Below are positions 32,551 to 61,108 of a stretch of DNA of 64,000 nt, in pieces. Location: contig NC_086108.1 of assembly GCF_963921235.1 (NCBI RefSeq), positions 71,054,001 through 71,118,000 of the forward strand, read 5' to 3'. The position numbers and the translations under genes were made by a program. The notes under the pieces were generated by a model that was given only the letters and a program-made list of their open reading frames with translations, did not search any database and was not told where the DNA came from. How positions within the stretch are numbered: the first letter of the stretch is position 1; every line of letters starts with the position of its first letter. Origin of the DNA: Mobula hypostoma (taxonomy: Eukaryota).

Positions 32551-33249
32551 GATGTATACTTTTGTTGTATATTGCAAATTTTATTGACAGCTCTCTGAGT
32601 CATATTGGCTTATCTATTTGTACTTATCTGACTTGATGTGTACAGAAGATTTGCAGTTAGTGATTGGTTAAACATGTCTCCCATGGTGGTTAATTGCATG
32701 TAAGAATCAGGTGAAATTATAAACCTGTTGTTCAAAAGTAGTAAGCCTTTAATGCTTTCAAGATTCATTTGCAATTTATTAGATTGAATGTTAAATTAAT
32801 ATCAGGGTAACAATTACGAATGTATAAATAAAATTTAAAAGATGTGTGAAATTGAAGGTGCTCTCCAACTTCGTGCCTGTATAAGTGAACATTTTTTTAA
32901 CTGATAGACAACAGTTCTTTGTAACTGAGAGCTTTTAAAGGTGAGTTGTATACACACTGAGACTAAGTGGTTGATACTAAGGGATCACTGTATGGAGCTG
33001 TATTTTTCATTTCATGTGAACAAGTGGAACTCCTGTTAGATGCATGTATTGGTGTGGTGGGATGTGAAATGGGAAGAATGCTCAGAGATAAATGGAAGGA
33101 AGTGATACCCAGTATGTGCACTTACAGTTTTCATTTGTAATTGTATGAAAATATCAATACATGCCATTAAAATTAATATTTATGTAGCCTGTAGTGGGAA
33201 AGATTAATTCTGCTGTATGGTAAACTAGGTTGAAGATTGTAAAACAAAA

Positions 33250-34400
33250 CACAAAATATTGGAAATACTCAGAAGGTCAGATAGCATCTCTGGGGAAAGG
33301 AAAAGGGTTAATGAATCATCCTTCATTAGAACTGGAAATGAGGATGTTTTAAGTTGCAGAGAGGTGGCGAGAACAGGGAATATTTGTGATAGAATGCTGA
33401 CTAAACTTAATACAATAATTACCTTAAAACTGGCTACTAAAGAAAAGAAGAAAAAGCTAAATAGAAACGATGGTTGAGTCACATCTGTGGATAGAAGAAA
33501 AGGGTGGTTATTTGAAACTGATAAACTTAGTATTAAGTCCTGAAGACTGCAACATATGCATATGGAGGAGAGGTGCCGTTACTTGTGCCTACATTGAGCA
33601 TTGTTGGGGAAGTGTAGGTTACTAAAAATCAAGAGGTCAGAGTAGGGATGAGGCAAAGAATTAAAATGACAGGTTAATTGGAAGCTTGGATACTCTTGTG
33701 GATCAAGCAGAGATGTTTTTCAAAGCATTTATCCAGTCTATATTTGGTCTGTCCACAGTAGAGGAAGCTGCGTGCCATTAAACTGGAAGAAGTTCAAGTT
33801 CATTTTTTCTTCACGTGGAAGGGCCATTTGGGTCTCTGGAGGGTGATTGTTGGCGATATAAAAGGAGAGTGGTGTATCTCCTCCTGTTGGTTACATAGAA
33901 TAGAGTTGTGAGGAAGGGCGTGTTTGGCGATGGAAGAAGGGATTAAGGATCCATGGAGGATATGAGCCCTTGGAATGCTGAAAGGGGAGGGGAAAATACT
34001 GTATATCTGTTTATGAGATCTTGTATAAGGTGATGGAAATTCTGAAGATGTCATCGAAGTTGTGGTTGTTAGAATGGAAAATAGGAACCAGGAGAACCCA
34101 ATCCTTGTCCTATCTAGGAGGAATGTGTGTGAGCAAAAGTGCAGGAAATAGACAAGGTGTGATTGAGAGTCTGGTCATCTGTGTTGGAGGGGAAGCTATG
34201 GTTAAAGTAAAAGGAAGAAATCTTAAGGGCACTAGAGTGGAAAGAATCATTGTGGGAGAAATACAAAGAAATGGCGAAATGGAATTCTTACAGACAGCAG
34301 GGTGACAATTGGTGCAGTAAAGATGGTCATGGGAGTCATTGGCTTATAAATAGATATTGGTCGCAACCTACTGAGGATGAGGTGGAAATGTCAAGAGAGG
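33250..34400 (-). mobile_element. Highly decayed Penelope-like element
   Basis: Terminal-repeat signature GGAAATACTCAG..GGTCAG..AGCATCT at 33260-33290, followed by purine-rich sequence loosely mirroring 39100-39800. Confidence 0.5.
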
Positions 34401-35420
34401 GAAAAAATTAGAATTATACCATATGAAAGTGGCTGCAGGCTGCAGTTTGGCAAAAAAGGTAAGAAAATTTTGATTATGAGTACAGAAAGAACCGCGAGTA
34501 CAGTGATTAATGTAAGAGAAATGAAAAGTGAGATCTCAGTAACTCTTGCTTTCCGGAGTACTCAGGAACTCTATTATCTAGCTCTTTTAAAAAAAAAAGG
34601 TCCCCTCAAGATTAAATATCTGATTGAAAGCGCTTGCATGTTAATTGTGGATTGCTTCCATCCTTGCCCACTTGCTAAATTTCCTGGTGTCACTCTGCAT
34701 AGGTTTGCTTTCAGTAGGATGGGTAATGGCTTGCTGCATATCCCTATCTTTGGCTGTGAATGCTCAAAGCAACTAAAATAATTTTTAATCTCCATCCACT
34801 GCACGCAATATTTTGAAATTTAAAATAAAAACTTCATTAAAAATTTGAGAAGCTGCTGGGGAAAGGTTCTTTACTTATGTCTATCCTTAAAACAAAAATA
34901 TCACTATCATTTTCCTTCACTATTTTGTCCGTTCCCCTTTTCTGCTTTTTCAGGGTCATGGACTTTCTTTGTGATTTTACTCAATTTATATTGTTTTCCT
35001 GTTATCTAGTTTTGTTTGCCACTGAGCAGGTATATTTTTTTAAATCTTTTTTATAATCAGTTTGAATATTTTTTCAGTAATTTGTATTCTTGTTGTGCAA
35101 TGTAAATTTGATACTACCTCTTGAAAATTTTAAGTCTTTTATGTAACTTGTGTAATGAGTATTGCTGATTTTGTTTTGTATAAAATTTGTTTCTAGTAAA
35201 AGTAATTATTTCAAGTTAATTACTATCATTTTTCTTTGTATTAGATTTATTTGTTTATGTACTTGCCGTGATACTTATACTCATATTAATTATTATGAAT
35301 TGTTATGGCCATTATGAACATACTTAAGTTTTGATGCTGTAAGTATCGATCATTTAAGTTGCTCATAATTCTGTTCTGTTTTCATGCAATTATAGCTTTG
35401 TTTTTGACCTTCCCTTGCAG

Positions 35421-35564
35421 CCAAATCCATCAAATAAACTAGCAATAATACATATTTTGGGTCTGTTGTCCAATTTGTTTACCACATTGGATATCAGTCA
35501 CCATGACGATGAGCCTGAAGGCAGTGAAGCAAAGAAAAAACCCACCTTGCAAGGACCTAACCCA
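35421..35564 (+). CDS. IPO13: Importin-13 exon: PNPSNKLAIIHILGLLSNLFTTLDISHHDDEPEGSEAKKKPTLQGPNP
   Basis: cccttgcag acceptor and GTAAGT donor; 144 nt. Confidence 0.97.
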
Positions 35565-37271: not shown

Positions 37272-37407
37272 GCAACACACACAAAATGCTGGTGGAACGC
37301 AGCAGGCCAGGCAGCATCTATAGGAAGAGGTACAGTTGACGTTTCGGGTCGGGACGAAGGGTCTCGGCCCGAAACGTCGATTTTACCTCTTCCTATAGAT
37401 GCTGCCT
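37272..37407. repeat. Palindromic Penelope terminal-repeat derivative (copy A)
   Basis: Inverted arms 37309-37348 and 37368-37407; homologous to the Penelope 3' end at 40030-40130. Confidence 0.85.
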
Positions 37408-37529
37408 ATGGGAAGTTGGAGAAGATCTTAAAAACCTCACTCTGCATAAAGCTCTGGATTGTTTAGAATGATGTTCTACATTTTAGCTAATGTTATTCAT
37501 CAATGCCTTAAAGTGAAGTTAGAATTTGA

Positions 37530-40130
37530 CCTCTCCGACATTTTGTTCTCTGCCGTATCCACGCCTTCCACTGCCGGTTCTTCATATCCCTTGTATTCAG
37601 TAAGGATCAGAAGATTGCCCGTCTCCAGACAGCAGATTCTACCGGCCCCGGACTGCGATCTCTGCTGCTTCCTGTTCTGCCCTCGATTACTTTGGACTCC
37701 CCCAGATTACGGATCTCGCCGACTCCATCCCCGACCCCGACCCCGACAGCCCAGTGACACCACTATTGCCAATGATCTCTGGGTTCCACTACCATCAATG
37801 CCGGTTCCTACGACCCCAGACACCTTCAGATGGCTAATTGTGCAGCCTTTAGCTCCGGCTCCAGCCTACTTCTTCAGCAAGTATTCCACACCCTGTGCTG
37901 AAGACTCCTCCTGCCTTCAACCCTCTTCTTCTTGTTAGTCACCCCACTCTGGTTCTTTTCATCTTGAATTGCCAAAGAGACATCAACTTTCTCGACTTCA
38001 GCACTCCTCTTTGCGTCTCCAGTCTTACCCCCACTGAACATACTGCTGTCCACTCCCTCTGCACCAATCCCAACCTTACCATCAAACCTGCAAACAAAGG
38101 GAGTGCTGTTGTAATGTGGCGCACTGACGTCTCCCTTCCTAAGGCCAGGCGACAACTCTCAGACATCTCCTCATTCCTACTCCTTGAAGAGGACCCCACT
38201 CTGGGCTATCAGAAGACCTGTCTCTGACACCATCACTGACCTCATCAACTCTGGAAAACTCCCATCTACTGCCACTAAATTCAGTTCCCTTACTCCACAC
38301 TGCTTGCTTCTAACTCCCATCCAAAATCTACAAACCTGACTGAGTAGGCCTATTGTCTCTGCATGCTCTTGCCCCACTGAACTCGTGTCCTCACATCTCA
38401 ATTCCATTTTATCCCACTTCATTCAATCCCTTCCCACCTACATCAGCGACACTTCTCATGCCCTCGATTGCCCAAATAACTTTCAATTCCCTGACCCTGA
38501 CCACTTCATCTTCACCATGGATGTTCAGTTACTATACACTTCTATCACCCATCAAGAAGTCCTCAAAGCTCTCTGCTTCTTTCTTGACAAAAGAACCAAC
38601 CAATCTCCCTTCTCCACCACCTTCCTCTGTTTGGCAGAATTGGTCCTCATTCTCAACAATTTTTCCTTCAGCATCTCCCACTTTCTCCAAAATCGAGGGG
38701 TAGCCATAGGCACTGGCATGGTGCCCAGCTGTACCAGCCTGTTCATTAACTATGTAGAACAGACAATGTTCGAAGCTTTCCCTGGTTATACTCCCCAACT
38801 CTTCCTCCACTACACTGATAACTGCATGGACGCTGCCTCATGCACTCATGCTGAACTCGTCAATTTTATCAACTGTGCTTCTAACTTCCACCCTGTCCTT
38901 AAATTCACTTGATCCATCTCTGACACCTCTCTCCCCTTTCTCAATTCTCTGTCTCTATCTCTGGAGAGAAACTGTTAACTGAAGTCTTTTATAAACCTAC
39001 TGATTCCCACAGTTATCTCAGCTATAGCTCTACCCATCCTCTCTTTCATGTACATCCGTGCTCACCCTATCTTCCCGCCATCTTAATAGTGATAGTTCCT
39101 CTTGTCCTTACTTACCCCCCCATCAGCCTCTGCATCCAATACGCTATCCTCCACAAATTCAGCCATCTCCAAAGGGATCCAACCACTAAATATATCTTTA
39201 CCTTACCCCACCTACCTGCTTTCAACAGGAATTGCTCCCTGTGCGATTCCCTTGTCCATTCATTGCTCCCCAGTAATCTCCCTCTTGGCATTTATCTCTG
39301 CAAGTGGCCCGTGCTACACCTGCCCATACATCTCCTCCCTCACCTCCATTCATGGCCCCAGTGAGGCAACACTTTACCTATGAATCTGCTGCAGTTGTTT
39401 ATGGTGTCCGGTGCTCCTAATGCGGCCTCCCTGACATTGGTGAGACCTGTCGTAAATTGGGGGACCGCTTCATCGTGCACCTTTGCATCATTTGCCACAA
39501 GTGGTACTTCCCGATGGCCAAACATTTTAACTCTGGTTCCCATGTCGGTCCATGGCCTCCTCTCGTGCCAAGATGAGGTCACTCTCAGGGTTGAGGCCAA
39601 CACCTTGTCTGGGTAGCCTTCAGCCTGATGGCATGAATATTGGTATTTCCTTTCAGTATCAAAAAACACCCTCCCTTTCCTATGTTCCCCTTTCTTACCT
39701 TTTACTTGTTTTCACCTGCCTATTACTTTCCACTGGATCCCCACCCCATTCCCTTTCTCCTACAGCCCACTCTCCTCTCCTATCAGATTATTTCTTCTCC
39801 AGACCTTGATCTTTTCCACCTACCTGGTTTCACCTATCACCTTCCAGCTAGCCTCCTTTCCCTCCTTTCCCTCCTTTCCCTCCTTTCCCTCCTTTCCCTC
39901 CTTTCCCTCCTTTCCCTCCTTTCCCTCCTTTCCCTCCTTTCCCTCCTTTCCCTCCTTTCCCTCCTTTCCCTCCTTTCCCTCCTTTCCCCTCCCCCCTCTC
40001 CTTTTTATTATGACATTTTCCCCCTTCCTTCTCAGTCCTTAAGAAGGATCTCGGCCTGAAACTTCAACCATCTATTCATTTCTATAGATGCTGCCCCAGC
40101 TGCTGAGTTCCCACAGCATTTTGTGTGTGC
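37530..40130 (+). mobile_element. Penelope-like retroelement (RT + GIY-YIG), decayed
   Basis: IKPANKGSAVV, FTMDVQLLYTSI, GVAIGT, FLHYTDN (YIDD equivalent); VVYGVRCS*CGLPDIGETCRKLGDRF (GIY-YIG) near 39390-39470; terminal repeat 40030-40130. Confidence 0.92.
39852..39986 (+). repeat. Perfect tandem repeat (CCTCCTTTC)x15
   Basis: Counted directly in the sequence; pure pyrimidine strand. Confidence 0.97.
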
Positions 40131-40502
40131 TATGTGTTGCTTTGAATTTGATGGTATAAAACTAGTACACAGTCTTTAATCTCAGGGTGAGTATTGTAAA
40201 TAAATGTGTGTCTAACACTGTACAAGTGCAATACTAAATGTTTCAATGAATGGTTGTTATAAGGGGGGATCTGTTGGAGTAGAGTAAGTAATAAAGGTGA
40301 AAGAGAAGAATAATTTCTCCTTGTTGATAAAAAGAAGGCTAACAAGTGAACAAAGGCATCATACTTGCATAGAGGCATGTTTAAGACAAAAATAGATCAA
40401 TATTTGAAATGATGCTTTTTGTAGGGAAAAATCAGGGCTGTTAATTAGTGGCAAGTGCAGAGAATTAGTGTTGCTGGGAGGAGCTATTTGGCCTCCAACC
40501 TA

Positions 40503-40880
40503 CCAGATGTTGAAAAGACTAGATAAAGTGGATGTAGAGAGGATGTTTCCTCTGGTGGGGGTATCCAGAACTGGAGGACACAGCCTCAAAATTGAGGGGT
40601 GACCTTTTAGAACAGAGGTAAGGAGGAACTTTTTTAACCAAAGCGTGGTGAATCTGTGGAATGTTCTGCCACAGGCTGCGGTGGAAGCCAAGCCCATGGG
40701 TGCATACAGAATAGAAGTTGATATGTTTCTGATTGGTTGGGGCATCAAGGGATATGGTGAGAGGGCTGGTGTATGGGGTTGAATGGGATCCAGGATCAGC
40801 CATGATGAAATGGTGGAGTGGGCTCGATGGACTGAATGGCCTAATTCTGCTCCTATGTCTTATAGTCTTGTGGTCTATTG
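40503..40880 (+). mobile_element. CR1 3' fragment
   Basis: LDKVDVERMFPLVGVSRTGGHSLK...NFFNQSVVNLWN motif and CR1 3' UTR. Confidence 0.88.
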
Positions 40881-42429
40881 TAAAGTTATTTTTTTCTACT
40901 ATAGGATGTACTTCAATTTCACCACATTGACCATTGCAGTTACACCCGAATGATCCAATGAATCCATTTGTAGAAAACTTTTTTCTCTGCCAGGTCTGTA
41001 AGTAACACTACAGGTCTGCAATGTCAGTGTTAGGGAAATTATTGGAAAACATTCTGAAAGACAGAAATCTGCACCTAGAAAGACGGGGACTAATTTAAGG
41101 TGGTCACCAAAGAGATTGAAATTTTTGATGAGCTAACCAAATGTTTTAGCTCATGGAGTTGATGTGAACTACGTGGACTTCATAAGGCCTGTGACAAGAT
41201 CTTGTGTGGGGAAACTAGCAGTTCATGGAATCCATGGTAAATTAGCAAATTGGATGCAAAATTTTCTCTGTGATAGGTGGGCATGTACACGGCAGGCTGA
41301 ACAGCCCATTTCTATGTGGTATGACTCTGTTTAGGGCTAACAAGCAATTCATAATATGTTTTATGAATGTTATGAGACATACTATATTTGAAAATTGATG
41401 ATTACACTGTTACTCAGTAATTGAACTTCGATATTTATGAATGATACAGAGGAAATGCTTTAAAACTGCCGGCCACAAAACTTAAAATTCTCATTGTGTT
41501 CATGTACCTTTGTGGGCTTGACCCCATCTTGGTAACTTTCTCTGGGCATCTTGAAACATCTATACGTCTTACTCACAATTTGCTCTGTCCTCTGGCTCTA
41601 TTTCATCGATTTTGATTGCCAGCATCCTGAGACACTGTTTCTTGTCCCTTTGGTTACAGCCCAGCAATTCAAAAATGACATGTCCATTGCTAATATTTTC
41701 TGTCCGTTAACCAGTCCTCAGTCCATATTGTCACAAGAACAATCTCTCACTCATTGTCAGCAAGACCAAGGAGCTGATTATTGACTTCAGAAGGAGGAAA
41801 CTGGAAATCCATGAGCCGGTCCTCCTTGGAGGATCAGAGGTGGAGAGGGTCAGCAACTTTAAATTCCTTGGTGTAATCATTTCAGGGGATCTGTCCTGGG
41901 TCCAGCATGTAAGTGCCATTACAAAGAAAGCACGGCAGTGCCTCTACTTTCTTGGAGTTTGTGACAATGCAGCATGTCATCTAAAACTTTGACAAACTTC
42001 TATAGATGTATGAGGGAGAGTATATTGACAGGTTACAACACATTTTGGTATGGAAACAGCAATGCCCTTGAATGGAAAACCCTCAAAAAGTAGTGGATAT
42101 GGCCCAGTTCATCATGGGTAAAGCCCTTCCCACAATTGCATACATCTGCACAGAGCACTGTCGCAGGAAAGCAGCGTCCATCATCAAGGACCCCTATCAT
42201 CCAGGCGACGCTCTCTTCTCGCTGCTGCCATCAGGAAGGAGGTACAGGAGCCTCAAGACCCACACCACCAGTTTCAGGAACAATTATTACCCCTCAGCCA
42301 TCAGGCTCTTGAACCAGGGGATAGATTCACTCACCCCATCATTGAACTGTTCCTACCACAACCTATGGACTCACTTTCAAGACCTGCACATCTCATGTTC
42401 TCAATACTTATTGCCTATTTGTTAATAAT

Positions 42430-42660
42430 AATAATAATAATAATAAGAAGAAGAAGAAAGCCCTTAACTCTGAGTGGAGTCATTGGGACGCTGTCATGAT
42501 GGCATTTTTTTAGCAGGCTTTCTTATTTTTACGAGGCTGAGTTTCTAGCTTGATGCTCAACCCAGCACGGATGGAAAGCGTGCAAGGGAGCTGGCTGGAT
42601 TCGAACTCGGGAGCCTTCGCTCCGAAGTCCGGTGCTGATACCACTTCGCCACCAGCTGGC
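42430..42660 (-). mobile_element. tRNA-derived SINE with a (TTC)n(TTA)n tail
   Basis: Minus strand A box TGGCGAAGTGG and B box GTTCGAATCC; TSD TATTT(G/A)TTAATAAT at 42416-42429 and 42661-42674. Confidence 0.88.
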
Positions 42661-42679
42661 TATTTATTAATAATTATTA

Positions 42680-44242
42680 CAGGTTTCCCCCGCCATCCGA
42701 AGGTAGAGCGTTCCTATGAAATGGTTCGTAAGCCGAAATATCGTGAAGCGAAGAAGCAATTACCATTTACTTATATGGGAAAATTTTGTGACCGTTCGTA
42801 GACCCAAAAATAACCTACCAAATCATGCCAAATAACACATAAAACCTAAAATAACAGTAACATATAGTAAAAGCAGGAATTATATGATAAATACACAGCC
42901 TATATAAAGTAGAAATACTTCTCTACAACGATTGCCTGCACAGATCTCCGTAGTGAAAATCTCAATGCAAGCGCTGTTGGCATAAACGCGCTCTCCAGTA
43001 ACCTTTAAACTATGAAGCTGCCAAATCTACCAAATAACATGTAAAAATACACAGCCTATATAAAGTGGAAATATTGTATGTACAGTGTAGTATCACTTAC
43101 CGGAATTGGGAAAACAGCGCCGAGCACACTGATGATGGTGTGTTAGACTGAGTCGTCGCAGGCTGGGTGGTGCAGTGGCCCCCACCCTCCGGGTGGCCGA
43201 CGCGATACATTGCTGCAAAGAACGCAGTGGTAGCTGGGAGGCACACAGCACATCGTTAAGAAAAAAGCCGAAATAAACATGCTAATTAATTAGGTGCTGC
43301 CCGGCAGGTAAATGTCGGCGCAGATCAGAGGCGATTGCTGATTGCATCGCCTGTGATCTGGGCGGATAATTATATGCTAGGCGGCACCTAATTAATTAGC
43401 ATGTTTATTTTGGCTTTTTTCTTAAAGGTGTGCTGTGTGCCTCCCGGCTACCGCTGCATTCTTCGCGAATCGGTACAGTATCTGTCCGGGGCCTGGGTGT
43501 TGGGGTGGTGGGGCACGGGGGTGTCATCTTGTCGTCTGTTTCCATTAGAACAGGCAGCTCATCTTCGATGCCCGCCTCGATGTCGAAGGTCGAGGTTCGT
43601 CGTCTGCTGTGGCTGATGTGGAAGGCTTGCTTGACTGCTGAGCCTCGCGCATTTTTCTATCATACAGTTGTTTGTAAGCACTCAATCCATCCTGCAAATG
43701 TCCCCTAAACCTACATACCCTTTCAAAATTAGAGTCGTACTTTATCATTGCAGCAAAAATCTCACGCAGTTGCTTCACTTTCTGCATTCGGTTGCATTCG
43801 GTTTCGATTGTTATCCTTTGCTCTTCCAATTGCATCAGCTCTTCATCTATCAGTTCTTGGTCATGGGATGCCAAAACCTCTTCGACATCATCTTCGTCAA
43901 CTTCCACAAGCCAAACTCACTTTGTCCTTACTTCGTTCACCACGATCGAAGCGCTTAATTATGTCTAGTTTTATGCTAAGTGTAACACCCTTACTCTTTC
44001 AGGCTTTTCCGATACCTTAGAGCTCATCTTGCTAACGGCTGCTCAATGCAACGTGTTTAAGCAATGCCATTCCGAATCCGGGGCAGAGCGGCTGCTTGGG
44101 GCGCGCGCTGATTTTTTATCGCGCGCTGCCTTTCTTCGTAACAGTGAAAACACTTTCTGAAAGCGAAAACAGGGTACTAATGTAGGTCTTTCGTAACAGT
44201 GAGGTTTCGTAGGGTGAACATACGAAAAGCGGGGGACACCTG
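42680..44242 (-). mobile_element. Tigger-family non-autonomous transposon (copy 1)
   Basis: TA TSDs at 42678-79 and 44243-44; TIR CAGGTTTCCCCCGC / CAGGTGTCCCCCGC; transposase remnants LSIKLDIIKRFDRGERSKD and EDDVEEVLASHDQELIDEELMQLEE. Confidence 0.92.
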
Positions 44243-44459
44243 TATTATTTTCTTTTTGTATTTGCACAGTTTGTTGTCTTTTGTATGTTGGTTGTTTGTC
44301 CATGCTGTTGCGTGCGGTGATTGATTCTTGTTGTGTTTCTTATATTTACTGTGAATGCCCACAAGAAAATGAATGTCAGGGTTGTATCTAGTTACATATA
44401 ACTACTTTGATAATACATTTACTTTGAACTTTTGATCTTCGATTTTTTTTTCAAATATG

Positions 44460-44525
44460 CCACACTATACTTTATTGTCGCCAAACAATTGATACTAGAA
44501 CGTATAATCATCACAGCGATATTTG
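44460..44525 (-). mobile_element. Extreme 3' tip of a Rex/Babar LINE
   Basis: Reverse complement of 53932-53995. Confidence 0.8.
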
Positions 44526-44918
44526 GTCCTTTATAATCTACTAGATGTAATGCTAAAAATCTCTTAAGAGATTTGTTAACGCAGGATGTCCCTTTATAAA
44601 TTATTAGTTTTAAGTGTTCTCTCATATCTTTCCTACTAAAGTCAGGTAAATGTTCGTAGTTCTCAATTTTGTCTCCCTTTCCTTTCTTAAAAAGAGATTT
44701 TATTTATTTTTCACTCTTTGCTCCAATATTGTATTTGCCTTGTTGGCTGGGAAGGTTCTCGGTTGTGTTTTTGTGCTTTAAAGCGATATTTATTAGTTGT
44801 AAAATATTTATTCTTTAAAGAAGGCTTCTATTTGGCTTTGTTTGTCAAGATCTTTATTGTAAGAAACATTCTAATTTATCCTTTGCTATTTTAATAATTG
44901 AGGCTTTATCATTTTTAG

Positions 44919-45056
44919 GCTGTTTGCGCAATCTTCGAAAAGTCTGTGAAAACTCTTCTGGATGATTTTGCTCCGATGATCCCACAGCTTTCAGAAATGC
45001 TGGGTCAGATGTACAGTACTATTCCACAGGCATCTGCATTGGAACTAACACGCCAG
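44919..45056 (+). CDS. IPO13: Importin-13 exon: AVCAIFEKSVKTLLDDFAPMIPQLSEMLGQMYSTIPQASALELTRQ
   Basis: tttttag acceptor and GTAGA donor; 138 nt. Confidence 0.96.
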
Positions 45057-46839
45057 GTAGAATCAAAGCTTTTTTTAAAAAATAAAATAACATATTCTTC
45101 CATTTAGATTTTTTTTCTTATTCTATGGAATTAGAGAAACATTTATGTTTTTTCTGATAAATACACTTTTCCATTCCTTTGGCTGGTTGCCTGTGCCATA
45201 TGTACAGGCAAACTTATTTCGATCATATAAGTGAATTAACACAAGCACATAATGAAATAACTAACCATTATGTGGACTAAAACAACTTTTATGCTATAAC
45301 ACCAGTTTGTTGTTCATGCAGATTTTAGAGGGGACAGAAGGAGTCACGAAAACCTGAACTATGATTTTAAGCACCAGGCTCTTGAGTATACTTCTGTTAA
45401 ATTCTTTTGGATTCACTACTGTTCAATACAAATTTTCACATCCAAAACATGGTGCTTCTTTGGTTCATCTCAAATATAGCCCAAAGTACTGAAAAAAGCA
45501 GAAAAAATATAAACGAACCAAGTATCACTGATGAAATTTGATTAATTTGAACTGAAGTTTTAAACTGAACCTTATGAGCAAAGATTGAGTTGGAGCTTTT
45601 TTCTTTGGAGTGAAGGAGAATGCGAGGTCACTTGTTAAAGGTGTATTAAGGTTATGAGAGGGATAGGTATGGACGTCCTGTGCCTTTCTCCCAGGGTGGC
45701 ATTGGTCAATACCAGAGGACATCTTTTTAAAGTGAAAGGACTAAAATTTAGAGAAGTCAGAGATAGGTGCTTGGAATTCTGCTATGTCCAGTGGTCTGTG
45801 GAGCACCCTGCCGGTAGTGCCGGTACAGACTGTTGTGCTGTGCATTCAGAGATGCTCTTCAACACACTACTATTGTAATGCATAGTTTATTTGAGTTACT
45901 GTCAGCTTGAACCAGTCTGGCCATTCTCCTCTAATCAATATGATTATATTCAAACAAAAAGATAACAGTTAACATATTAAAAACAAATTAAGGTGAAGAT
46001 TTTCTAGTAAAATGTAACTTAACTTTCTCTTTGCTTTCTCAAACCAAACTGTACAATCTCCTTTGAGATCAGTAGAATGACAGCTCTTCTGGTATAGGAT
46101 CCTACATCAGCTCCTGTGTTAGTGTAGGGTCTCAACTAAAAGCTCAATGTATCCCTGTTGCTTTCACAGGTATTGGTTGATCTGCTATTTTTTCCAGCAG
46201 GTTAATTTATGTTCCAGATTCCAGCAATTCCAGCCTTCTGTTTCTCAGTAAAATTTGTATCAGTAAACTGAATCTGTCACCTTTAGAATTTCTACATTTG
46301 ACAGTGGCTGAATGCTAATTGTTCCAACTGGAATCACAGATAGTAGCTTTTGAGATGGAGGCCGTTCACATTATTTCTGTTTTGATGTGCTATCTGAACC
46401 GCTGAATGTTTTCCAATTAACAATAATTTGTTTTTGTGTAGTCCAGACTTGGTGCAGGAACCTACTGCCCTAAACTAGCATGTAAAGTATAATGACTTAT
46501 TTCTACAGTAGTGTTTGTCATATCCTTTATGGAAATCTAAGTGTAGCATATGGATTAGTTCCCCTTATCAACAGCACATCTTTCTTCTTTTAAAAAAATC
46601 CTAATAATTTGTTCAGATGTAAATTGTGTCTTTTGCAAGTAGAATTCTTCACCCTCGTTTGAAGATGAATTTGGAAAGCACGGTTAAGTAAGGCCATATA
46701 TTAATCAAATAAGTGCATTGAACAAGCACTCAGAGCAGCATTTCTAAATGGCTGCACCCAATCATGGCAATGTCTGTAGCTATTTTTAAATTGATTTAAT
46801 TGTTCTTTGTGGCTCCATGGGATAGTTATTTATTAACAG

Positions 46840-47605
46840 AATCATGGTTATTATCACTAACGTATGTCATGAAACTTGTTGTTTTGTAGCAGCAGCACAG
46901 TGCAATACATTAAAAATTACTATTTTATATAAACTAAATAGTGAAAAAGAGGAATAGCGAGGTAGTGTTCATGGGTTCATGGACCATTCATAAAACAGAT
47001 GGCAGAGGTAACAGTCTATTCCTAACATATTGAATGTGGTTATTCATCTATATCTTCTCGATGGTAGTAATAAGAAGAGGGCATATACAAGGTGGTGAGC
47101 ATCCTTAATGATGAAATCTGCCCTTTTGAGGCATCGTCTTTTGAAGATGTCTGCAGTGGTGGGAAGGCTTATGCCAGACTGAGTCGACAACCCTCAGCAG
47201 CCTCTTTGATTCTGCACAATGGAGCCTCCATTTTAGGTGGTGATATAAGCAGTCAGAATGCTCTCCAGCATATATCTGTAGAAATTTGCTAGAGTCTTTG
47301 ATGACATACCAAATCTTTGTGATTTCATCAATTTGTTGGCCTAGGATGGATCCTCTGAGATATTGATGCCAGAAACTTGAAGCTGCTCTACTTTTCACCA
47401 CTGACCCCTGAATGAGGACTGGTGCGTGTTCTCCTGACTCTGCTTTCCTGAATTCCAGAATGAGTGCAACACCATCCAACCTGCTGATCCATCTCTACGT
47501 CTTCCCAATGCCATCTGAGATTCTGTCAACAACTGTGGTGTCATCGGTATATCTATAGATGGCGTTTGAGATGTGCCTAACCACGCAAGTCTTTAGTGTA
47601 GAGAG
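46840..47605 (-). mobile_element. Decayed Rex1/Babar LINE fragment
   Basis: DDTTVV (near 47530-47547), EFRK...HAPVLI.G.VV motifs; Rex-type 3' UTR. Confidence 0.75.
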
Positions 47606-47915
47606 AGAGAGAGGAGAGTGAGTAGTGGTCAAAGATACTTTTAGAAGGAATTATGAAGCCATGCTAGTGAAAAAGCAATTAAAAAGAATTAGAAGTGTAC
47701 CATTATCTTGGTGAGGTACTCACCGAATTGACATTCTTGATGCATTCTATTCTACTCCAGTCCCAATTTGCATAACGTGCAGGATGTGCTCCAGATTAAT
47801 ATTTTCAAGGTCACTGTTCATTAATGGTTTTTATTGATTTTCTGTTTGATCTAGCTCCTTTATTTTCCTTACGTGACTACAATGTATTGTTTACTTGGGT
47901 TATTCTCTTTTTCAG

Positions 47916-48012
47916 CTAGTGCACATATTTGCCACTGATTCAACTCATTTTGTCCCAGTAAAGGCTCTGTTCCTCCTTGTCACTTCTGTGACCCTCTCAA
48001 TCTTCCAACAAG
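47916..48012 (+). CDS. IPO13: Importin-13 exon: LVHIFATDSTHFVPVKALFLLVTSVTLSIFQQ(G)
   Basis: ctttttcag acceptor and GTAGG donor; 97 nt, ends in phase 1. Confidence 0.95.
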
Positions 48013-50380
48013 GTAGGTCATCATACTTTTAAATTTGAATCATTTTGACATACCTAATGTGTGCTGCTATGTTTTTTTTTGCTCAGCTTTCAACCATAGT
48101 GATCATGCTGGTGGTTTTCTTGTATGTTTCCTGGTTTCATTGCTATTCAGTGAGGTTTATGCAGCCACGTAATCCTCCCTGAATCTTAAAGTTACTTAAT
48201 ATTTACTGTAATTAGCAATGAAAAATTACCATTTTACATATATGATGCAAAAATAAAATGTTTGATTCTTGTAAAATCACGTCTGTTTGTCTCATGACCT
48301 TGGATTTCCAATAAAACAACCGAATGTGGATGAGAAGATGATTTACACTGTTGGCAATTTCCATATGTGCTGCATTAATGATTTGTGTACTCCCAATTGC
48401 ATGAAGGGAATATTTGTATTCTTTCTGGGATGATTAAAGCACAAACCACTCTGAGGTATTGTTCACTACTCTTACAGTGATTGTTTGCTGTGCAGTTTGT
48501 GAAATGGGTTGCCTATGGATGAAGAGTTAAATTCAGCCTTCACAAATTGCATATCAGCTTAGATAAGCATTTGAAAAATATATAAAATTTATTGGTGTTT
48601 GGTAGGTATGGAATTGAAAACTCAAGATAATAAGATTGAAGTGGAGAAAACAGATGGAGGTTTATTTTGGCTTCCTTATTACCTAAAAATGACTGTCTTA
48701 AAAAAATTCTTACTTATCTTATTTTTTTTAGGATATAGTTTACAACATAGGTGAGGGAAATTAGTAGATTCTAAAAAAACATTTGAGACTCATTCCCCTG
48801 GTATGTTATTAAGAGATCATAGTATTGGGATTAATGCAATAGTATGGTTCGAGGATTAGCTAAAGAGCAGAAAGTGAAACCAGGATAAGTGCATAACTTT
48901 CATATTGGTAGAAGTTTACTGTTGGGTACCACAGAATCAGTGCTAAGATGCTTTACTCTTTAGAATCGGGTATACTGATTTAAGGGACCAAATGTTATTT
49001 ACTCAGTTTGTTGATAATGTAGAGTATGGAAAGGAACTAATCTGCAAGGAAGATGCAGAATGCCTGGGAATATGTATGTACTTTCTTGAATAAGCAAACA
49101 TGAAGATGGAGGCTCAAGTGTAGCATAGAATGGTTTTTTTTTATTTTTGTAGTTGGTTAGAATATTGTGAATGGTGATAGTTTCTTACATATTTGTTTTT
49201 ACTGAGATTTGCATATCTGTGAGCACAAAACACAAATACAAATATTTATGGTGGCAAATTGGATGTTCATTGTTATTGCATAGGCTTTTGGAGTGGTAGA
49301 ATGAGAAAGTCTTGCAATAAATGTACAGGACTTGGAGACAAAACCTCAAGCATTCTATACAGATCTTATCTCTGAATCCAATGAAATATAAACCTAGTAT
49401 AACAAAAGTTTGCCAGTGATTCCTGGGAAGATGGTGCCGTCTAAAAAAGAGATTCAACCAAGCTCTGAAACCCTTAATATTGGCCCCAAGTTTCTTTATT
49501 TGATCAAATTGTTAAAAGAATATGAGGTGAAAATTGCACACACAAGGTTCAAAATCAATAATGAAGTATAATGTATACAACACAATATCTTGGAAATATC
49601 TAAGATTTAGGAAAGTCTTGATTTAGTTATTGAAAGAGCAAAAACAAAACAGTAAGCACGACACGTAGATCTGGAAGCCTTTAGCTGAACAATATTTTCA
49701 AAAAAGGAGCATGTCCTGTAGACCCCAAAGTAGGTTGAGCATAATCAGCTGACGATACTAAGTACAGAAGAAAATTCAAACTTCCATACAGAACCATGAA
49801 TTATCTTGGCATCAAAGCCATATTTGAACAGAATTAAGTGCTGGATGTGAATTAAAAGGTCATAAATTTAACATTGCTTTACATGGAATGCCGTCGCAGA
49901 GTCCAGAAAGGATTTCACAGCATAATAGTTCAAAGTACTATGCTAGGGGTACTATGCCAAGTCAGATCTGACAATAGGATTGTAGACCTAATCTACTTAA
50001 ATGGGAATGATGACTTTTTTAAAGGATATATTGTACTTCGGTTCTGTGTTTGTAATAAGTAACTTTCTTTTTTGTAATAATTTGCATAACTGTTAATAGT
50101 TTTTAATTGTCAGGAAAAATAGGTTTGACTAGAGGCAAGGTCACAACCCCAGGTTTGGCTTCTGTCAAAGACTGACAAGTATTTCAGAGCAGGGCCATCG
50201 CACTCCTCCATTTGATGACTACTTGCTTTGCTGGATGCTACAGGACCCGTTAATCCAGTTAAGATACATCAGTGCAGTTTAGAATGGCTATTGGGTAATC
50301 GTCTGGTTGGCAGATTGAATCCGACGCAATTTGACCCATTCATTTTAGAAATTAAAAATATGAGGAATAGAAGTAAAAGA

Positions 50381-50569
50381 CCAGGCAGCATCTCTAGGAA
50401 GAGGTACAGTCGACATTTGGAGCCAAGACCCTTCGTCAGGATGAAGAGTCTCGGCCCGAAACGTTGACTGTACCTCTTCCTAGAGATGCTGCCTGGCCTG
50501 CTGCGTTCACCAGCAACTTTGGTTTGTGTTGCTTGAATTTCCAGCATCTGCAGAATTCCTCGTGTTTAC
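50381..50569. repeat. Palindromic Penelope terminal-repeat derivative (copy B) with an 11-bp TSD
   Basis: GAAGTAAAAGA at 50370-50380 and 50570-50580; arms inverted around ~50440. Confidence 0.9.
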
Positions 50570-52879
50570 GAAGTAAAAGAAAATCAGTTTGCAGAATCTG
50601 GAAATCTGAGATAAAATCAGAAAGTGCTTAAACACTCAGTAGTTCAAACAACATCTGTGGAAAATACATATTTTTAGCAAAATACTTTTTAAAAATCTGT
50701 GTGAGGCTTTTCCTTAATTTTCCTTAAATCATAGGAACAGGCATAAGCCAACAAGCATTTAATGATTGTATAATCATTCACTATTTGATGGCTATATACC
50801 TGTAATTTCTCTTTTCCTCATTTCTTAATGCTTTTGACTGCAATAACTTAACAATGTTTGATTTTTAAAATTAGCACCAATGGCCAACTTGTTCAGAACA
50901 CCTATCTCCTATCTATTTTAATCTTATTCCACTAAACTTTGATCTTCTGATTTCCTTCTTGGCCCTTGTGAAACTTGTATTATCAATGATCTTTCAATTT
51001 TATCTTTATCTGTTTCACCTTTGCCATATATGCTATCCTATTCCATTTGCAGCTTTGTTTCAAATTCTCTCATCAGATTTCTGCCTTTGCTGCAGAACTT
51101 TTCAGTCAATAATCAGTTACATAAGTGATATGCGTTATAACAATGATCATGATGCATTATCGTTTATAGCCTTCTTTGTTTACCTATAATATTATTTAAA
51201 AAATCAGATTTTGAATGTTTGAATAATTATTTAGTGTCACATTACTCGTGTATTTTGAAGTTTAGCGCATTATACTGGACTTAAATGTTCTAGATTATCA
51301 TTATTTCATGATTGAGTGTAGGGAAATCTGTGCATGTGTCTGGACAAACTACCTGCATCAGGGAAGCTAAACCACTCATTGAGAGTTGAATCCTACCAGT
51401 TAAACATGGTTGTAAGTTGTAGTTTTCCTCTTGGTTTGTCAAGAAGATAAACCCTGTGAGTTATTTTGCTTCTACTTAAAAGTTTGAGATCAATGGAAAC
51501 TCTTGCTTCAATGAAATGCCAATCGATTTAGTTTGTTTGGCATAGGTATTTACTACAGTCTGTTGAAATATCGAAAATCTCTTCTAATGCAATTGTAATA
51601 AATACTTATTTAATGCATTGTGAGTATTATTCAGCAAGAAACTGTAGGTACTCTAAATCTGAAGGACAGGTAACACCTATGGAGAGAGAACAGTTAGCAT
51701 TTCAGGTTGATGACATACTGCCAGAATCTTTTGCCAAGTTGATGAGAGGTAGTCAGACTGGTAGTTTAACTCCTGTTTTACACTGCATAAATACACCTGA
51801 TCTGAATATTTCCAGAATTTTCTGACTCTAATATCAATATTATAGTATCTAGAACAAATGTGGGGAGTAAGTTTTTAAAATCTTTCCCCAGGTTGCTTTA
51901 CTTTTAAGGTAATCAATGGTTAATTTGAAATGGTGAAAATGATTGCTCATCTCCCCTGGTTTCCCTACTCTTTTTCTTTATCAATGTGTGGTGTTCAGGA
52001 GGTTCTAAGCTGGCAGTGGAGCTTCCAGTGACAAGGTGGAAATGACTCCGCTTGCTGCTCTTTTACACTGCTTTCAGATTTTCTTATGCTTTTGAGAAAT
52101 GTATGAAAATAAGGTGTGTCTGTTCACATTTTTCAAAAAACATTTGTGATATTACTACTACAATAGTAGTACCGGGTTTCCCCCGCCATCCGAAGGTAGA
52201 GTGTTCCTGTGAAACGGTTCGTAAGCCGGAATGTCATAAAGTGAAGAAGCAATTACCATTTATTTATATGGGAAAAATTTGTGAGCGTTTGCAGACCCAA
52301 AAATAACCTACCAAATCATGCCAAATAACACACAAAACCTAAAATAACAGTAACCTATAGTAAAAGCAGGAATGATATGATAAATACACAGCCGATATAA
52401 AGTACAAATACTTTTCTACAATCATTGCCTGCACTGTTATCCGTAGCAAAAATCTCACGCAAGCGCTCTTGGCAAAAACACGGCGCAAGCGTTTTCGGCA
52501 GAAAATCTCACGCAAGCGCTCTCAGCAAAAACACTCTCTCCAGTAACCTTTAAGCTATGAAGCTGCCAAATCATACCAAATAACACATAAAAATACACAG
52601 CATATATAAAGTAGAAATAATGTATGTACAGTGTAGTATCACTTACGGGAATTGGGAAGACAGCGCCGAGCACACTGATGATGGTGTGTTAGGCTGAGTC
52701 ATCGGAGGTTGGGGTGGTGCAGTGGCCCCCACCCTCCGGGCAGTGAACCGATATCGATCCGCGAAGAATGCAGCGGTACAGCGGTAGCCAGGACGCATCC
52801 AGCACATCTTTAAGAAAAAAGCCAAAATAAACAAGCTAATTAATTAGGTACTGCCCAGCATGTAAATGTTGGCCCAGAT

Positions 52880-54002
52880 AAACTGATTCCTAAGCTCCGG
52901 AACCTGGCCCTTAGCACTCAGATCTGCAGCTGGATCTTCAACTTCCTCACAGACAGGACCCAGGCTATAAAAATAGGGGACAAGCTCTCCTCTACAATCA
53001 CTCTGAGCACCGGTGCCCCACAAGGCTGTGTACTCAGCCCCCGGCTATACTCACTGTAAACCCATGATTGTGTAGCCAAGTTTCCATCAAACTCAATATA
53101 TAAGGTGGCACAACAATTGTATGCCGTATCTCGGGTAATGATGAGTTTGAGTACAAAGAGGAAATTAAGAACCTGGTGGCATGGTGCGAAGACAATAACC
53201 TATCCCTCAACATCAGCAAGGCGAAGGAATTGGTTGTTGACTTCAGAAGGAGTAGCGGACCACATGACCCAATTTACATGGGGGGTACGCAAGTGGAACA
53301 GGTCAAAAGCTTTAAGTTCCTCGGGGTCAATACCACAAATGACCTGACTTGGTCCAACCAAGCAGAGTTCACTGCCAAGAAGGCCCACCAGTGCCTTTAC
53401 TTCCTGAGAAAACTAAAGAAATTTGGCCTGTCCCCTAAAACCCTCACTAATTTTTATAGATGCACTGTAGAAAGCATTCTTCTAGGGTGCATCACAACCT
53501 CATATGGAAGTTGTCCTGTCCAAGACCGAAAGATGCTGCAGAAGATCGTGAACATGGCACAGCACATCACACAAACCAATCTTCCGTCCTTGGACTCACC
53601 TTACACCGCCCGCTGTCGGAGCAGTGCTACCAGGATAATCAAGGACACGACCCACCCAGCCAACACACTTTCCGTCCCTCTTCCCTCCGGGAGAAGGCTC
53701 AGGAGCTTGAAGACTCATACGGCCAGATTTGGGAACAGCTTCTTTCCAACTGTGATAAGACTGCTGAACGAATCCTGACCCGGATCTGGGCCGTACCCTC
53801 CAAATATTCGGACCTGCCTCTCGGTTTTTTTGCACTACCTTACTTTCCATTTTTCTATTTTCTATATATGATTTATAATTTAATTTTTTAATATTTAATA
53901 TTTGTAATCCAGGGAGTGGGAAGCGCAGAATCAAATATCGCTGTGATGATTGTACGTTCTAGTATCAATGGTTTGGCGACAATAAAGTAGAAAGTATAAG
54001 TA
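52880..54002 (+). mobile_element. Rex1/Babar LINE, 5'-truncated
   Basis: [36 protein letters not shown] 53176..53778; AAGTAT-type tail. Confidence 0.92.
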
Positions 54003-56271
54003 CAGGTGTCCCCCGCTTTTCGAACATTCGCTTTACGAAACCTCACTGTTACGAAAGACTTACATTAGTACCCTGTTTTCGCTTTCAGAAGGTGTTTTCA
54101 CTGTTACGAAAAAAACTCGGCGTGCGAAAAAGTCAGCGTGTGATAAAAAGCAGCACCGCTGTCCCCGGATTCGGAATGGCATTATCGCCAGCATTGCTTT
54201 AACACGAGCCTGTGAGCAGTTGTTTGCAAGATGAGTTCTATGGTGTCGGAAAAGCCTGAAAGAGCTCGTAAGGGTGTTACACTTAGCGTAAAATTAAGCG
54301 TTTTGATGGTGGTGAACGAAGTAAGGATAAAGTGAGTTTGGCTTGTGGAAGCTGACGAAGATGATGTTGAAGAGCTTATGGCATCCCATGACCAAAAACT
54401 GATAGATGAAGAGCTGATGCAATTGGAAGAGGAAAGGATAACAATCGAAACCGAATGAGTAATGATAAAGTATGACTTTAATTTATGAAAAGGTACGTAG
54501 GTTTAGGGGATATTTGCAAGATTCTTTGAGTCCTTACAAAGAACTGTATGATAGAAAAATACGCGAGGATCAGCAGTCAAGCAAGCCTTCCACATCAGCC
54601 ACAGCAGACGACGAACCTCGATCTTCGACATCGAGGCGGGCAGTCATGGGAGAAGATGAGCTACCTGCTCTAATGGAAACAGATGACGAGATGACACCCC
54701 AGTGTCCCACCACCCCAACACCCAGGCCGCGGACAGATACTGTACCGATTTGCGGAGAATGCAGCAGTAGCCGGGAGGCACACAGCACATCTTTAAGAAA
54801 AAAGCCGAAATAAACATGCTAATTAATTAGGTGCCGCCCCACATGTAAATGTCGGCCCAGATCAGAGACGACGCAATCGGCACTGATCTGGGCCGACAAT
54901 TATGTGTCGGGCAGCACATAATTAATTAGCATGTTTATTTCGGCTTTTTTCTTAAAGATGCGCTGTGTGCCTCCCGGCTACCGCTGGACCCCTGCGTGCT
55001 TCACGGCAATGTATCGGTTGGTGGCCCGGAGGGTGGGGGCCACTGCACTACCCCAACCTGCGACAACTCAGTCTAACACACCATCATCAGTGTGCTCTGC
55101 GCTGTCCCAATTCCGGTAAGTGATACTACACTGTACATACATTATTTCTACTTTATATCGGCTGTGTATTTTTACGTGTTATTTGGTATGATTTGGCAGC
55201 TTCATAGTTTAAATATTACTGGAGAGCGCTTGCACCGTGATTTTGCCAACAGCGCTTGCGTGAGATTTTCTGCTGACGGCGCTTGCGTGAGATTTTCGCT
55301 ACGGAGGTCTGTGCAGGCAATGATCGTGGAAAAGTATTTCTACTTTATATGGGCTCTGTATTTATAGTCATAGTCATACTTTATTGATCCCAGGGGGAAA
55401 TTGGTTTTCGTTACAGTTGCACCATAAATAATAAATAGTCATAGAACCATAAATAGTTAAATAGTAATATGTAAATTATGCCAGTAAATTATGAAATTAG
55501 ACCAGGACCAGCCTATCGGCACAGGGTGTCTGACCCGCCAAGGGAGGAGTTGTAAAGTTTGATGGCCACAGGCAGGAACGACTTCCTATGACGCTCTGTG
55601 CTGCATCTTGGAGGAATGAGTCTCTGGCTGAATGTACTCCTGTGCCCAACCAGTACATTATGTAGTGGATGGGAGACATTGACCAAGATGGCATGCAACT
55701 TAGACAGCATCCTCTTTTCAGACACCACCGTGAGAGAGTCCAGTTCCATCCCCACAACATCACTGGCCTTACGAATACGTTTGTTGATTCTGTTGGTGTC
55801 TGCCACCCTCAGCCTGCTGCCCCAGCACACAACAGCAAACATGATAGCACTGGCCACCGCAGACTCATAGAACATCCTCAGCATCGTCCGGCAGATGTTA
55901 AAGGACCTCAGTCTCCTCAGGAAGTAGAGATGGCTCTGACCCTCCTTGTAGACAGCCTCAGTGTTCTTTGACCAGTCCAGTTTAATGTCAATTCGTATCC
56001 CCAGGTATTTGTAATCCTCCACCATGTCCACACTGACCCCCTGGATGGAAAATATGATATTTATCATATCATTCCTGCTTTTACTATATGTTACTGTTAT
56101 TTTAGGTTTTATGTGTTATTTGGCATGATTTGGTAGGTTATTTTTGGGTCTGCGAACGCTCACAAAATTTTCCCATATAAATAGATGGTAATTGCTTCTT
56201 CGCTTTATGACATTTCGGCTTACGAAACGTTTCATAGGAATGCTGTACCTTCAGATGGCGGGGGAAACCTG
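54003..56271 (+). mobile_element. Tigger-family element (copy 3, inner, opposite orientation)
   Basis: TA at 54001-02 and 56272-73; begins CAGGTGTCCCCCGC and ends GCGGGGGAAACCTG; MSSMVSEKPERARKGVTLSVKL N-terminal remnant. Confidence 0.92.
55366..56050 (-). mobile_element. Rex1-type LINE 3' fragment
   Basis: YKYLGIRID.KLDWSKNTEAVYKEGQSHLYFLRRLRSF; (ATGACT)n tail; TSD TATTTAT at 55359-65 and 56058-64. Confidence 0.92.
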
Positions 56272-57654
56272 TATAAGATCAGAGGCAGAATCGGTATCTG
56301 TCCGCGGCCTGGGGGTTGGGACCACTGGGGTGGTGGGACACAGAGGTGTCATCTCATCGTCGATCAGTGTAGGCAGGTCATCTTCTCCTGTGTCTGCCTG
56401 CCTCGATGGCGAAGGTCGAGGTTCGTCATCTGCTGTGGCTGATGTGGAAGGCTTGAAAAACAACAGTATGCTTGACTGCTTAGCCTCGCATATTTTTCTA
56501 TCATACAGTTCTTTGTAAGCACTCAAACCATCCTGCAAATATGCCCTAAACCGACGTACCCTTTCAAAATTAAAGTCGTACTTTATCATTGCAGCGAAAA
56601 TCTCACACAGTTGCTTCACTTTCAGTTCCTGGATGACTTAACTTTCGGTCCGTTCGCTACTGCATTCGGTTTCAATTGTTATTCTTTCCTCTTCCAATTG
56701 CATCAGCTCTTCATCTATCAGTTCTTGGTCATGGGATGCCAAAACCTCTTCAACATCATCTTCATCAACTTCCACAAGCCAAACTCACTTCGGCCTTACT
56801 TCGTTGACCACGATCGAAACGCTTAATTATGTCCAGTTTTACACTAAGTGTAACACCCTTACAAGCTCTTTTAGGCTTTTCCGATACCTTAGAACTCACC
56901 TTGCTAACGGCTGCTCACAGGCACGTGTTTAAGCAATGCCGGCGAGATTGCAGTTCCGAACCCGGGGGAGAGCGGCTGCTTGGGGCGCGTGCTGCCTTTT
57001 ATCGCGCACCATTTTTTTCGCGCGCTGTCTTTTTTCGTAACAGTGAAAACACCTTCTGTTAGTGAAAACAGGTAACTAATGTAGGTCTTTCGTAACAGTG
57101 AGGTTTTGTAAAGCGAACGTTTGAAAAGCAGGGTACACCTGTACCAGATGCAGGGGCTCAGCATTTAATTGGTAACCAGTGGTTACTCCAGAATTAACAG
57201 TTCTGTCCTTGTTAGTTCCTTGGAGTTTGATCTGTCTCCAGGGGCTTGAGGCTTAGTTCTGAACATAAATTTTCCAGATTATTTGGATGAGTGATTTGTG
57301 TTCAGCACACAGCCAAATGTCTACACTACTAGAGAACCATAGGATCTGTGCATTGGAAAAATTGTAACCTCCATGGTATGATTTCATGAATGTAATTATT
57401 TTAGTATTTGCTACAGAATTTGTATTATCATTAATTTATTAAATTGTAAAAGTTAGTAATTTTCCTGCCTAGGGCATGATATGTAGGTGGCAATCACATT
57501 TTCGTTGCTATCTTTGCTAAAATCAGGTAATTCGGTATACTGTAATTTTCTGTCTTGGGTGGTAATTTTAAATATATAGTCATAGAAAAAGATAGCACAT
57601 GTTCTCTATGAATATGTTGGGTCTGTCTGTGTGTCTGTTATGCCTTTGTGAACC

Positions 57655-58174: not shown

Positions 58175-58345
58175 GCAACACACACAAAATGCTGGAGGAA
58201 CTCAGCAGGCCAGACTGCCTCTATGGAAAAAAAGTACAGTCAACGTTTCGGGCCGATAGATGCTGCTTGGCCTGCTGAATTCCTACAGCATTTTGTGTAT
58301 GTTGCTTGGATTTCCAGCTTCTACAGATTTTCTCTTGTTTGTGAT
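58175..58345. repeat. Palindromic Penelope terminal-repeat derivative (copy C)
   Basis: CAACACACACAAAATGCTGGAGGAACTCAGCAGGCC with its inverted partner; degenerate 13-bp TSD at 58162-74 and 58349-61. Confidence 0.85.
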
Positions 58346-58992
58346 TTGACAAATAATCTGACATTTTATTATTTGATAAGTTCATGTTTATTGTCCAAGT
58401 ATGCATGTACAATACAACTCTGACATTTGTCTACTCCAGATAGCCATGAAGCCCCCAACCCGCCAACCCCTTGGCACAAAAAAGAGAAGAAACAAAACTC
58501 CCAGAACCCAAAATTCCCCCTTCCCTGCAGCAAAAACAGCCACAATAACAATCACCGACCCTCTACACATAACAATCCCTGACCCCCTCATTCGCAGAAA
58601 AGAACAGTGATAGTAGCACCAAACCCCCAACCCCTCCCCCTTACATACAAAAATTAACAGACCACCCACCTGCCAATCATCCACAAGAAAGAAAGCACCG
58701 AAAAAACTGAAGGAAACCAATATAAATTACAGTCCAATAATAACAATAAATCTCAAAATATATCTTGTGATGGCTGCATTAACTCTTGCTCCACAGCAAT
58801 GTTCCCTTTACATTGCCCTTGGAAATGGTTTAACAAATCACGTATTCACATCAAACACCATGCAGAGTTAGACTTGGTCTCAGGGTAACAACAGGCAGTT
58901 AGGGCATGAGAATATGCGGTCATTGTGATCAATTGAATGGAACATTTGAGGCTTTGGCAGAGATAAAAATGATTGTGTAGAAGTTGTTTTTA

Positions 58993-60909: not shown

Positions 60910-61108
60910 CACACACAAAATGCTGGAGGAACTCAGCAGGCCAGGCAGCATCTATGGAAAAAAAAAAGTACAGTCGATGTTTCAGGCTGAAACTCAGCCC
61001 AAAACATCAACTGTTCTTTCTTCCATAGATGCTGCCTGGCCTGCTGAGTTCCTCCAGCATTTTGTGTGTGTTGCTTGTATTTTCAGCATCTGTAGATTTT
61101 CTCGTTTG
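60910..61108. repeat. Palindromic Penelope terminal-repeat derivative (copy D) with a 15-bp TSD
   Basis: TTATTT(T/G)CATGACTT at 60895-60909 and 61109-61123; arms inverted around ~60992. Confidence 0.9.

Follow-up and report, generated by a model that had tools for sequence, protein, structure and literature searches.

Our analysis indicates that a 64,000-nucleotide stretch of Mobula hypostoma DNA (contig NC_086108.1; "the window" below means this whole stretch, counted from its first letter) carries a minimal type I hammerhead ribozyme (min-HHR) in four mutated copies. The copies come from the terminal repeat of an abundant Penelope-like element (PLE) and lie in introns of the importin-13 gene, IPO13. 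The intact ribozyme probably cleaved RNA of the element itself, acting as a dimer, whereas the copies in the window are predicted to be inactive. We give this reading as a whole a probability of about 88%. A preliminary description of the window had already proposed such a hammerhead in the Penelope terminal repeat (the pseudo-long terminal repeat, pLTR), and all the strings it quoted are found where it placed them (40033-40070, 37353-37380 and 50440-50470 on the plus strand, 50407-50441 on the minus strand). The four copies are listed here with their rank and E value in the model search (model R2) described below.

40033..40070, plus strand: min-HHR remnant in the 3' pLTR of the element at 37530-40143 (rank 5, E 0.34)
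37348..37383, plus strand: min-HHR remnant (rank 1, E 1.3e-4)
50407..50441, minus strand: min-HHR remnant, antisense to IPO13 (rank 2, E 2.7e-4)
50440..50470, plus strand: min-HHR remnant (rank 3, E 0.032)

The sequence supports reading this motif as the minimal type I hammerhead of a PLE pLTR. Allowing up to three mismatches, the core pattern occurs at three places on the plus strand of the window and not once in 100 shuffles. The parts of the ribozyme are spread over the copies. The CUGANGA core with its one unpaired base is undamaged in the minus copy (50439-50432) and broken in the three plus copies. Helix II, closed by G10.1-C11.1 and followed by GAAA, is undamaged at 37359-37374. It had been described as 3 bp long and in fact has 4 bp (GGGU/GCCC, with one U-G pair) and a 4-nt loop. 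The palindromic 15.2-16.2 positions, with no loop 3 and with an NUH triplet, can be read as ACGU-C at 37374-37378 and are absent from the copy at 40033. A helix I of at least 3 bp is seen at the level of the family only (CAGUC at 40033, GACUG at 50466, and the loose ends and joints of contigs), and in none of the window copies does it occur together with an undamaged core.

Each copy is damaged in its own way. The CTTAAGA reported at 40038-44 is there, a G5U change, but the damage to this copy had been understated: 8 of its 38 letters differ from the earlier consensus, with loss of the palindrome (ACUU for ACGU) and a broken first pair of helix I among the changes, and helix II is damaged. In the copy at 37348-37383 C3 and U4 are missing (GGGACGA), while helix II, GAAA and ACGUC are undamaged. 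The plus copy at 50440 has also lost C3-U4, as had been noticed for both of these cores, and in addition carries G10.2A, with GUU as its triplet. The minus copy retains CUGACGA; it has the CAAATG noted before, with G12C, and the 5' strand of helix I is truncated, which leaves a helix I of only 2 bp. A strict descriptor finds no min-HHR in the window and accepts none of the four copies. In structure predictions the tested pairs of helices I and II have a probability of 0.0 in their context, and so do the ribozyme helices of the palindromic copies. A catalytic letter is missing from each copy, and the palindromic ones fold into long hairpins; we therefore predict that none of the four cleaves IPO13 pre-mRNA. 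The earlier doubt about their activity is thus upheld and becomes stronger.

Most of the damaged letters are restored when the family is considered instead of the single copy. We aligned contigs from four public runs to 50330-50680, which gave 65,294 contigs for X1, 42,143 for X5, 2,191 for X17 and none for X21. The stretch around 50381 is palindromic, so that its contigs are sorted between two arms; contig shares are therefore not allele frequencies, and contig depth is not copy number. Summed depth over X1, X5 and X17 restores the ribozyme letter at 50419 (74-79%), 50421 (95-99%), 50425 (51-74%), 50447 (95-98%) and 50465 (C, 76-94%). The loose ends behind 50441 (373 and 276 contigs) start with CT and agree with their consensus at only 0.39-0.41 over its length, and CTG, CTA or CTAA is found at the joints. 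From these loose ends and joints we place (C/U)AGUC before CUGA. What variation remains in the family consists mostly of CpG changes, C>T or G>A. Family depth drops near 50567-50570, where the insertion unit at 50381 ends.

Relatives of the element point in the same direction. An alignment of 21 of 39 proteins led to 87 loci in all, 80 from metagenomes (the best 80 of 380) and 7 from genomes. The strict descriptor finds 23 motifs in them (17 on the plus and 6 on the minus strand), compared to 0-1 per round in 20 rounds of shuffled plus strands. Among the 34 loci that have the endonuclease end and 400 nt of room behind it, 11 carry a strict min-HHR 60-120 nt after the open reading frame (ORF). 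A search for the core letters alone yields 50 matches in the 87 loci (shuffle mean 2.8), and both helices reach at least 3 bp in 24 of the 50, as against 2% of the shuffled matches. Compensatory changes affect both helices: 7 of 8 pairs show two-sided changes, both when 12 hand-picked relatives and the 4 window copies are aligned with MAFFT and in 47 distinct model-aligned matches. The rows of model R2 are relatives only, aligned by a model (R1) that included the window copies. When R2 is run over the 64 kb, the window copies take ranks 1, 2, 3 and 5 of 23. Scanning viral, genome and metagenome contigs for the pattern brought up no matches, and neither single-protein searches nor an alignment search of viral sequences returned relatives.

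The motif also agrees with what has been published for PLEs. The earlier consensus matches the published min-HHR consensus (PMC4209133, supplementary Fig. S3). Compared to the PLE min-HHRs of that study, of which the closest listed is in a Neptune PLE of Acropora digitifera, the motif has the same CUGANGA with an extra A and the same G10.1-C11.1 pair, a 4-bp helix II with a 4-nt loop and GAAA-CG-UC without loop 3, as well as a short helix I, a pyrimidine-rich 5' flank and a location in the 3' pLTR. There are three differences. The host is probably a cartilaginous fish, helix I has 4-5 bp here and 3 in the coral motif (PMC4209133), and the distance between ORF and motif is about 380 nt in the window element, microsatellite included, in contrast to 60-120 nt in the relatives.

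Protein homology supports the Penelope context of the motif, and exon matches confirm that the host gene is IPO13 on the plus strand.

37530..40143, plus strand: decayed, probably 5'-truncated Penelope-like element with reverse transcriptase (RT), Cys linker, GIY-YIG-type end, 3' untranslated region (UTR) with microsatellite, and 3' pLTR (tblastn, candidate target-site duplication)
213-377, plus strand: IPO13 exon, match to human importin-13
35421..35564, plus strand: IPO13 exon that precedes the copies, encoding importin-13 residues 629-676 (E 2e-19)
47916-48011, plus strand: IPO13 exon encoding residues 750-781 of 963, located after the 40033 locus and before the one at 50381 (E 2.5e-8)

The RT homology of the element runs from 37907 to 39650 in several frameshifted pieces (tblastn against P0002, P0024, P0026 and P0009), and the protein that best matches its longest ORF comes from Mobula hypostoma (66%). 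Pfam recognises RVT_1 in all four relatives scanned (in one of them below the curated cut-off) and GIY-YIG in P0026 as well; no family was found in five window ORFs. The element boundaries are inferred from a candidate 8-bp target-site duplication (TSD; 37522-37529 and 40144-40151, null share 1.3%). The 40033 motif lies at the head of the 3' repeat. Just 5' of it, at 39850-39990 in the 3' UTR, there is a (TTTCCCTCC)n microsatellite. Across a frameshift near 39300 the Cys linker reads LCKW and CYTC in adjacent frames, a CX2-5CxxC type, and the alignment of relatives has CxRxxCxTC. A linker of this type characterizes Neptune and is shared with Nematis (PMC8557442). Judged by the linker, the element probably belongs to the Neptune clade.

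The three exons are colinear with human importin-13 on the plus strand, hence the copies lie inside IPO13. Three cores are on the sense strand of its introns. The proposal that remnants lie in the IPO13 pre-mRNA on both strands therefore holds for the plus-strand cores but not for the minus copy, which is antisense.

Except for the copy at 40033, the hammerhead remnants belong to palindromic units. Besides the two that had been noticed before, the window contains a third and a fourth.

37272..37407: pLTR palindrome of head-to-head arms without a clear TSD, the left arm having a 13-nt gap
50381..50569: complete insertion unit, a short inverted arm and a pLTR with 3' tail, perfect 11-bp TSD (50370-50380 and 50570-50580)
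58175..58348: third pLTR palindrome, missed by the preliminary description, weak 13-bp TSD with 2 mismatches (null share 5%)
60910..61108: fourth pLTR palindrome, likewise missed, 15-bp TSD with 1 mismatch, junction in helix II / loop II

These palindromes are head-to-head, 5'-truncated insertions with clear TSDs at two of them, the 50381 and 60910 units, for which a score of at least 10 occurs in none of 300 null pairs. The units at 37272 and 50381 have a common junction, GTC-(A/G)G-GAC. With a C at 50442 the centre of the 50381 unit becomes a stem without mismatches and a 2-nt loop, which is what a fold-back of the cDNA would give, and at least 81 (X1) and 76 (X5) contigs cross its junction with that C. 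In the 58175 unit the left arm extends to loop II, while the right arm begins 3' of the hammerhead and bears the tail. Three of the four units have such an extra one-arm tail of about 35-40 nt. Every one of the four inversion junctions touches the ribozyme, on the 5' side of the cut site. Of the 8 arms, 7 begin within the motif in alignments read by eye, likewise 5' of the cut site, and none begins at it. On the plus strand all four loci are predicted to form hairpins of -72 to -132 kcal/mol. At 50482 and 50484, A>G changes are found at 11.6% and 7.5% in X17, a run we guess to be RNA, versus 1.3-3.0% in two DNA runs; editing of the hairpin or a different mix of subfamilies could produce this excess.

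Inverted, 5'-truncated pLTR units are known from endonuclease-positive PLEs (PMC3846280, PMC8557442). They share with the window units the head-to-head arms, the one-arm tail of 30-40 nt, the TSD around the whole unit and a junction palindrome that has been read as self-priming. Unlike the published ones, the window units are only about 140-200 bp long, have no ORF and have their junctions in the hammerhead. Non-LTR retrozymes are similarly short, non-coding and pLTR-derived and carry a type I hammerhead, but they form head-to-tail tandems with complete hammerheads, whereas each window unit is one single head-to-head palindrome whose cores are broken. Hammerhead-bearing retrozymes have been reported in one chondrichthyan in a preprint (bioRxiv 10.64898/2026.07.22.740005).

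How might ribozyme and palindromes fit into the life of the element? From published work on PLEs one would expect two cores to pair via the 4-bp ACGU palindrome, perhaps aided by an element protein, and to cleave after GUC. Dimer cleavage is reviewed in PMC6765202. The junctions suggest that each palindrome is the product of one insertion event, in which reverse transcription halted early, inside the ribozyme, and the halted cDNA folded back and primed the second arm. Because sequence 5' of the cut site is retained in the arms, their RNA template had probably not been cleaved there. It is even conceivable, if we speculate, that the hammerhead itself sets the point at which RT breaks off and folds back. 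The mini inverted repeat GTC-CT-GAC and helix II would seed self-priming, and this hotspot would mass-produce hairpin insertions of 140-200 bp, each of which destroys its own core and gives host introns a long stem of double-stranded RNA. We treat the hotspot as a hypothesis only, because it is drawn from four loci and a partial table of joints, and because inverted copies in relatives reach 2-805 nt 5' of C3. Three related ideas found no support. The 37272 palindrome is not the 5' partner of the 37530-40143 element, as its pLTR letters fit the 50381 subfamily and not the copy at 40033. Copies that start at the cut site are supported neither by contig depth nor by the arm starts. Finally, junctions at the hammerhead are not supported as a rule for all related PLEs: of 14 minus-strand copies, 13 were measurable, and the reach just given is a lower bound in each.

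Several observations weigh against our main conclusion. The copy at 40033 by itself scores at chance level, and no single intact copy is seen, the intact form being a majority across contigs in which 50415 stays unrestored in the left-arm pile. The Rfam scan that had been suggested as a check (e.g., for Hammerhead_1) failed, giving 13 matches at E<=10 and no hammerhead family among them. Among the relatives, 23 of the 34 loci with enough room show no strict min-HHR, and both covariation counts are biased towards structure, since one alignment was hand-picked from descriptor hits and the other fitted to the model. Published min-HHRs are inactive as monomers and weak even as dimers (PMC4209133), and the hammerhead of a lizard PLE needs protein to cleave and is dispensable for insertion in vitro (PMC11167929). 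Could the likeness then be an accident of stitching damaged copies together? The missing intact copy and the Rfam result would fit, yet shuffle controls, contig restoration, the motifs of relatives and covariation all speak otherwise. The layout agrees with the published coral Neptune min-HHR, and that a model built from relatives ranks window copies at the top largely refutes the idea, which we regard as next to impossible. A more serious alternative, if still a doubtful one, is that the motif is a true min-HHR by descent that serves only as a structural or protein-binding signal, cleavage having no role in the element's life cycle. Every arm that reaches the motif retains sequence 5' of the cut site and none begins there, and there is no depth step at 50465/50466, although contigs are a weak test of this. 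Hammerhead mutants insert normally in vitro and no RNA-seq ends were found at the cut site (PMC11167929), and Naiad PLEs spread without hammerheads (PMC8557442). Selection on catalysis, however, would predict what we find in relatives: catalytic letters that are invariant in 13 divergent ones (chosen for having the motif) and core-only matches 18-fold over shuffles where pairing was not required.

The palindromes could also be copies of a single self-amplifying, non-autonomous element, similar to miniature inverted-repeat transposable elements or short interspersed elements, instead of separate interrupted insertions. The junction common to the 37272 and 50381 units and the contigs spanning it would be explained in this way. 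We consider it unlikely, because the four palindromes show three different junctions, two pLTR subfamilies and differing arm ends, and because the two units with a common junction have their long arms on opposite sides. Moreover, an inverted pLTR with tail and TSD is the standard PLE insertion product (PMC3846280, PMC8557442). Three cores on the sense strand of IPO13 introns might, finally, suggest co-option for cleaving or regulating the host pre-mRNA, as in the amniote intronic hammerheads of RECK, CTCL and DTNB (PMC6155905). Those domesticated ribozymes resemble the window copies in having a type I core in an intron on the sense strand; in contrast to these damaged repeats without helix III, they are intact and conserved. 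Every sense copy in the window lacks C3-U4 or G5, the strict descriptor finds nothing, the ribozyme helices are not predicted to form, and family variation lies mainly at CpG sites. Co-option is thus very improbable. Under our preferred reading, that of inactive remnants of the element's own ribozyme, the palindromes would not cut host pre-mRNA, as C3-U4 or the 5' strand of helix I is lost and the unit folds into a long hairpin.

Both the min-HHRs and the inverted insertions of PLEs are already published (PMC4209133, PMC8557442, PMC3846280). Our literature search, which left most subscription papers and repeat databases uncovered, found no description of this family, though it may be in the supplements of the chondrichthyan preprint. 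Among the matches listed, no paper ties hammerheads to cartilaginous fishes, and the text of the PMC4209133 supplement, of which one of three files was unsearchable, has no match for shark, Callorhinchus, Leucoraja or skate. We also found no published description of junctions that all touch the ribozyme 5' of the cut site, with two of them shared. Our study extends a known pairing of ribozyme and retroelement to a very abundant family in a probable ray, with intronic copies that probably do the host transcript no harm. Given its tens of thousands of contigs, the family could serve as a test bed in which the starts of insertions can be compared with the cut site, and in which one can ask whether intact sense copies are depleted in introns.

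Some further observations concern the window and the relatives. A second, older Penelope-like remnant lies at 33246-34520 on the minus strand (29-44% to relatives). It has its own decayed pLTR near 33340-33246 (minus strand), which the preliminary description had also missed, with a trace of the core near 33335-33320 that R2 does not list. The metagenome locus L066 has a short palindrome at 3326-3543 whose head-to-head arms each hold a hammerhead remnant, like the units described here and from another family. Seven Penelope-like loci (L081-L087) are within one assembly labelled as a bacterial metagenome-assembled genome, which is probably animal host DNA. The palindromes may resemble crocodilian Chompy elements. 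Other long palindromes in the window (43215-43466 and 54762-54986) are part of another repeat family, several copies of which lie at 42669-44244, 52162-52888 and 54000-57144. Long ORF remnants at 1744-2820, 11052-13454, 24600-25494, 26566-28143 and 53104-53778 are, we presume, similar to the RT of non-LTR elements (CR1/L2/Rex-type).

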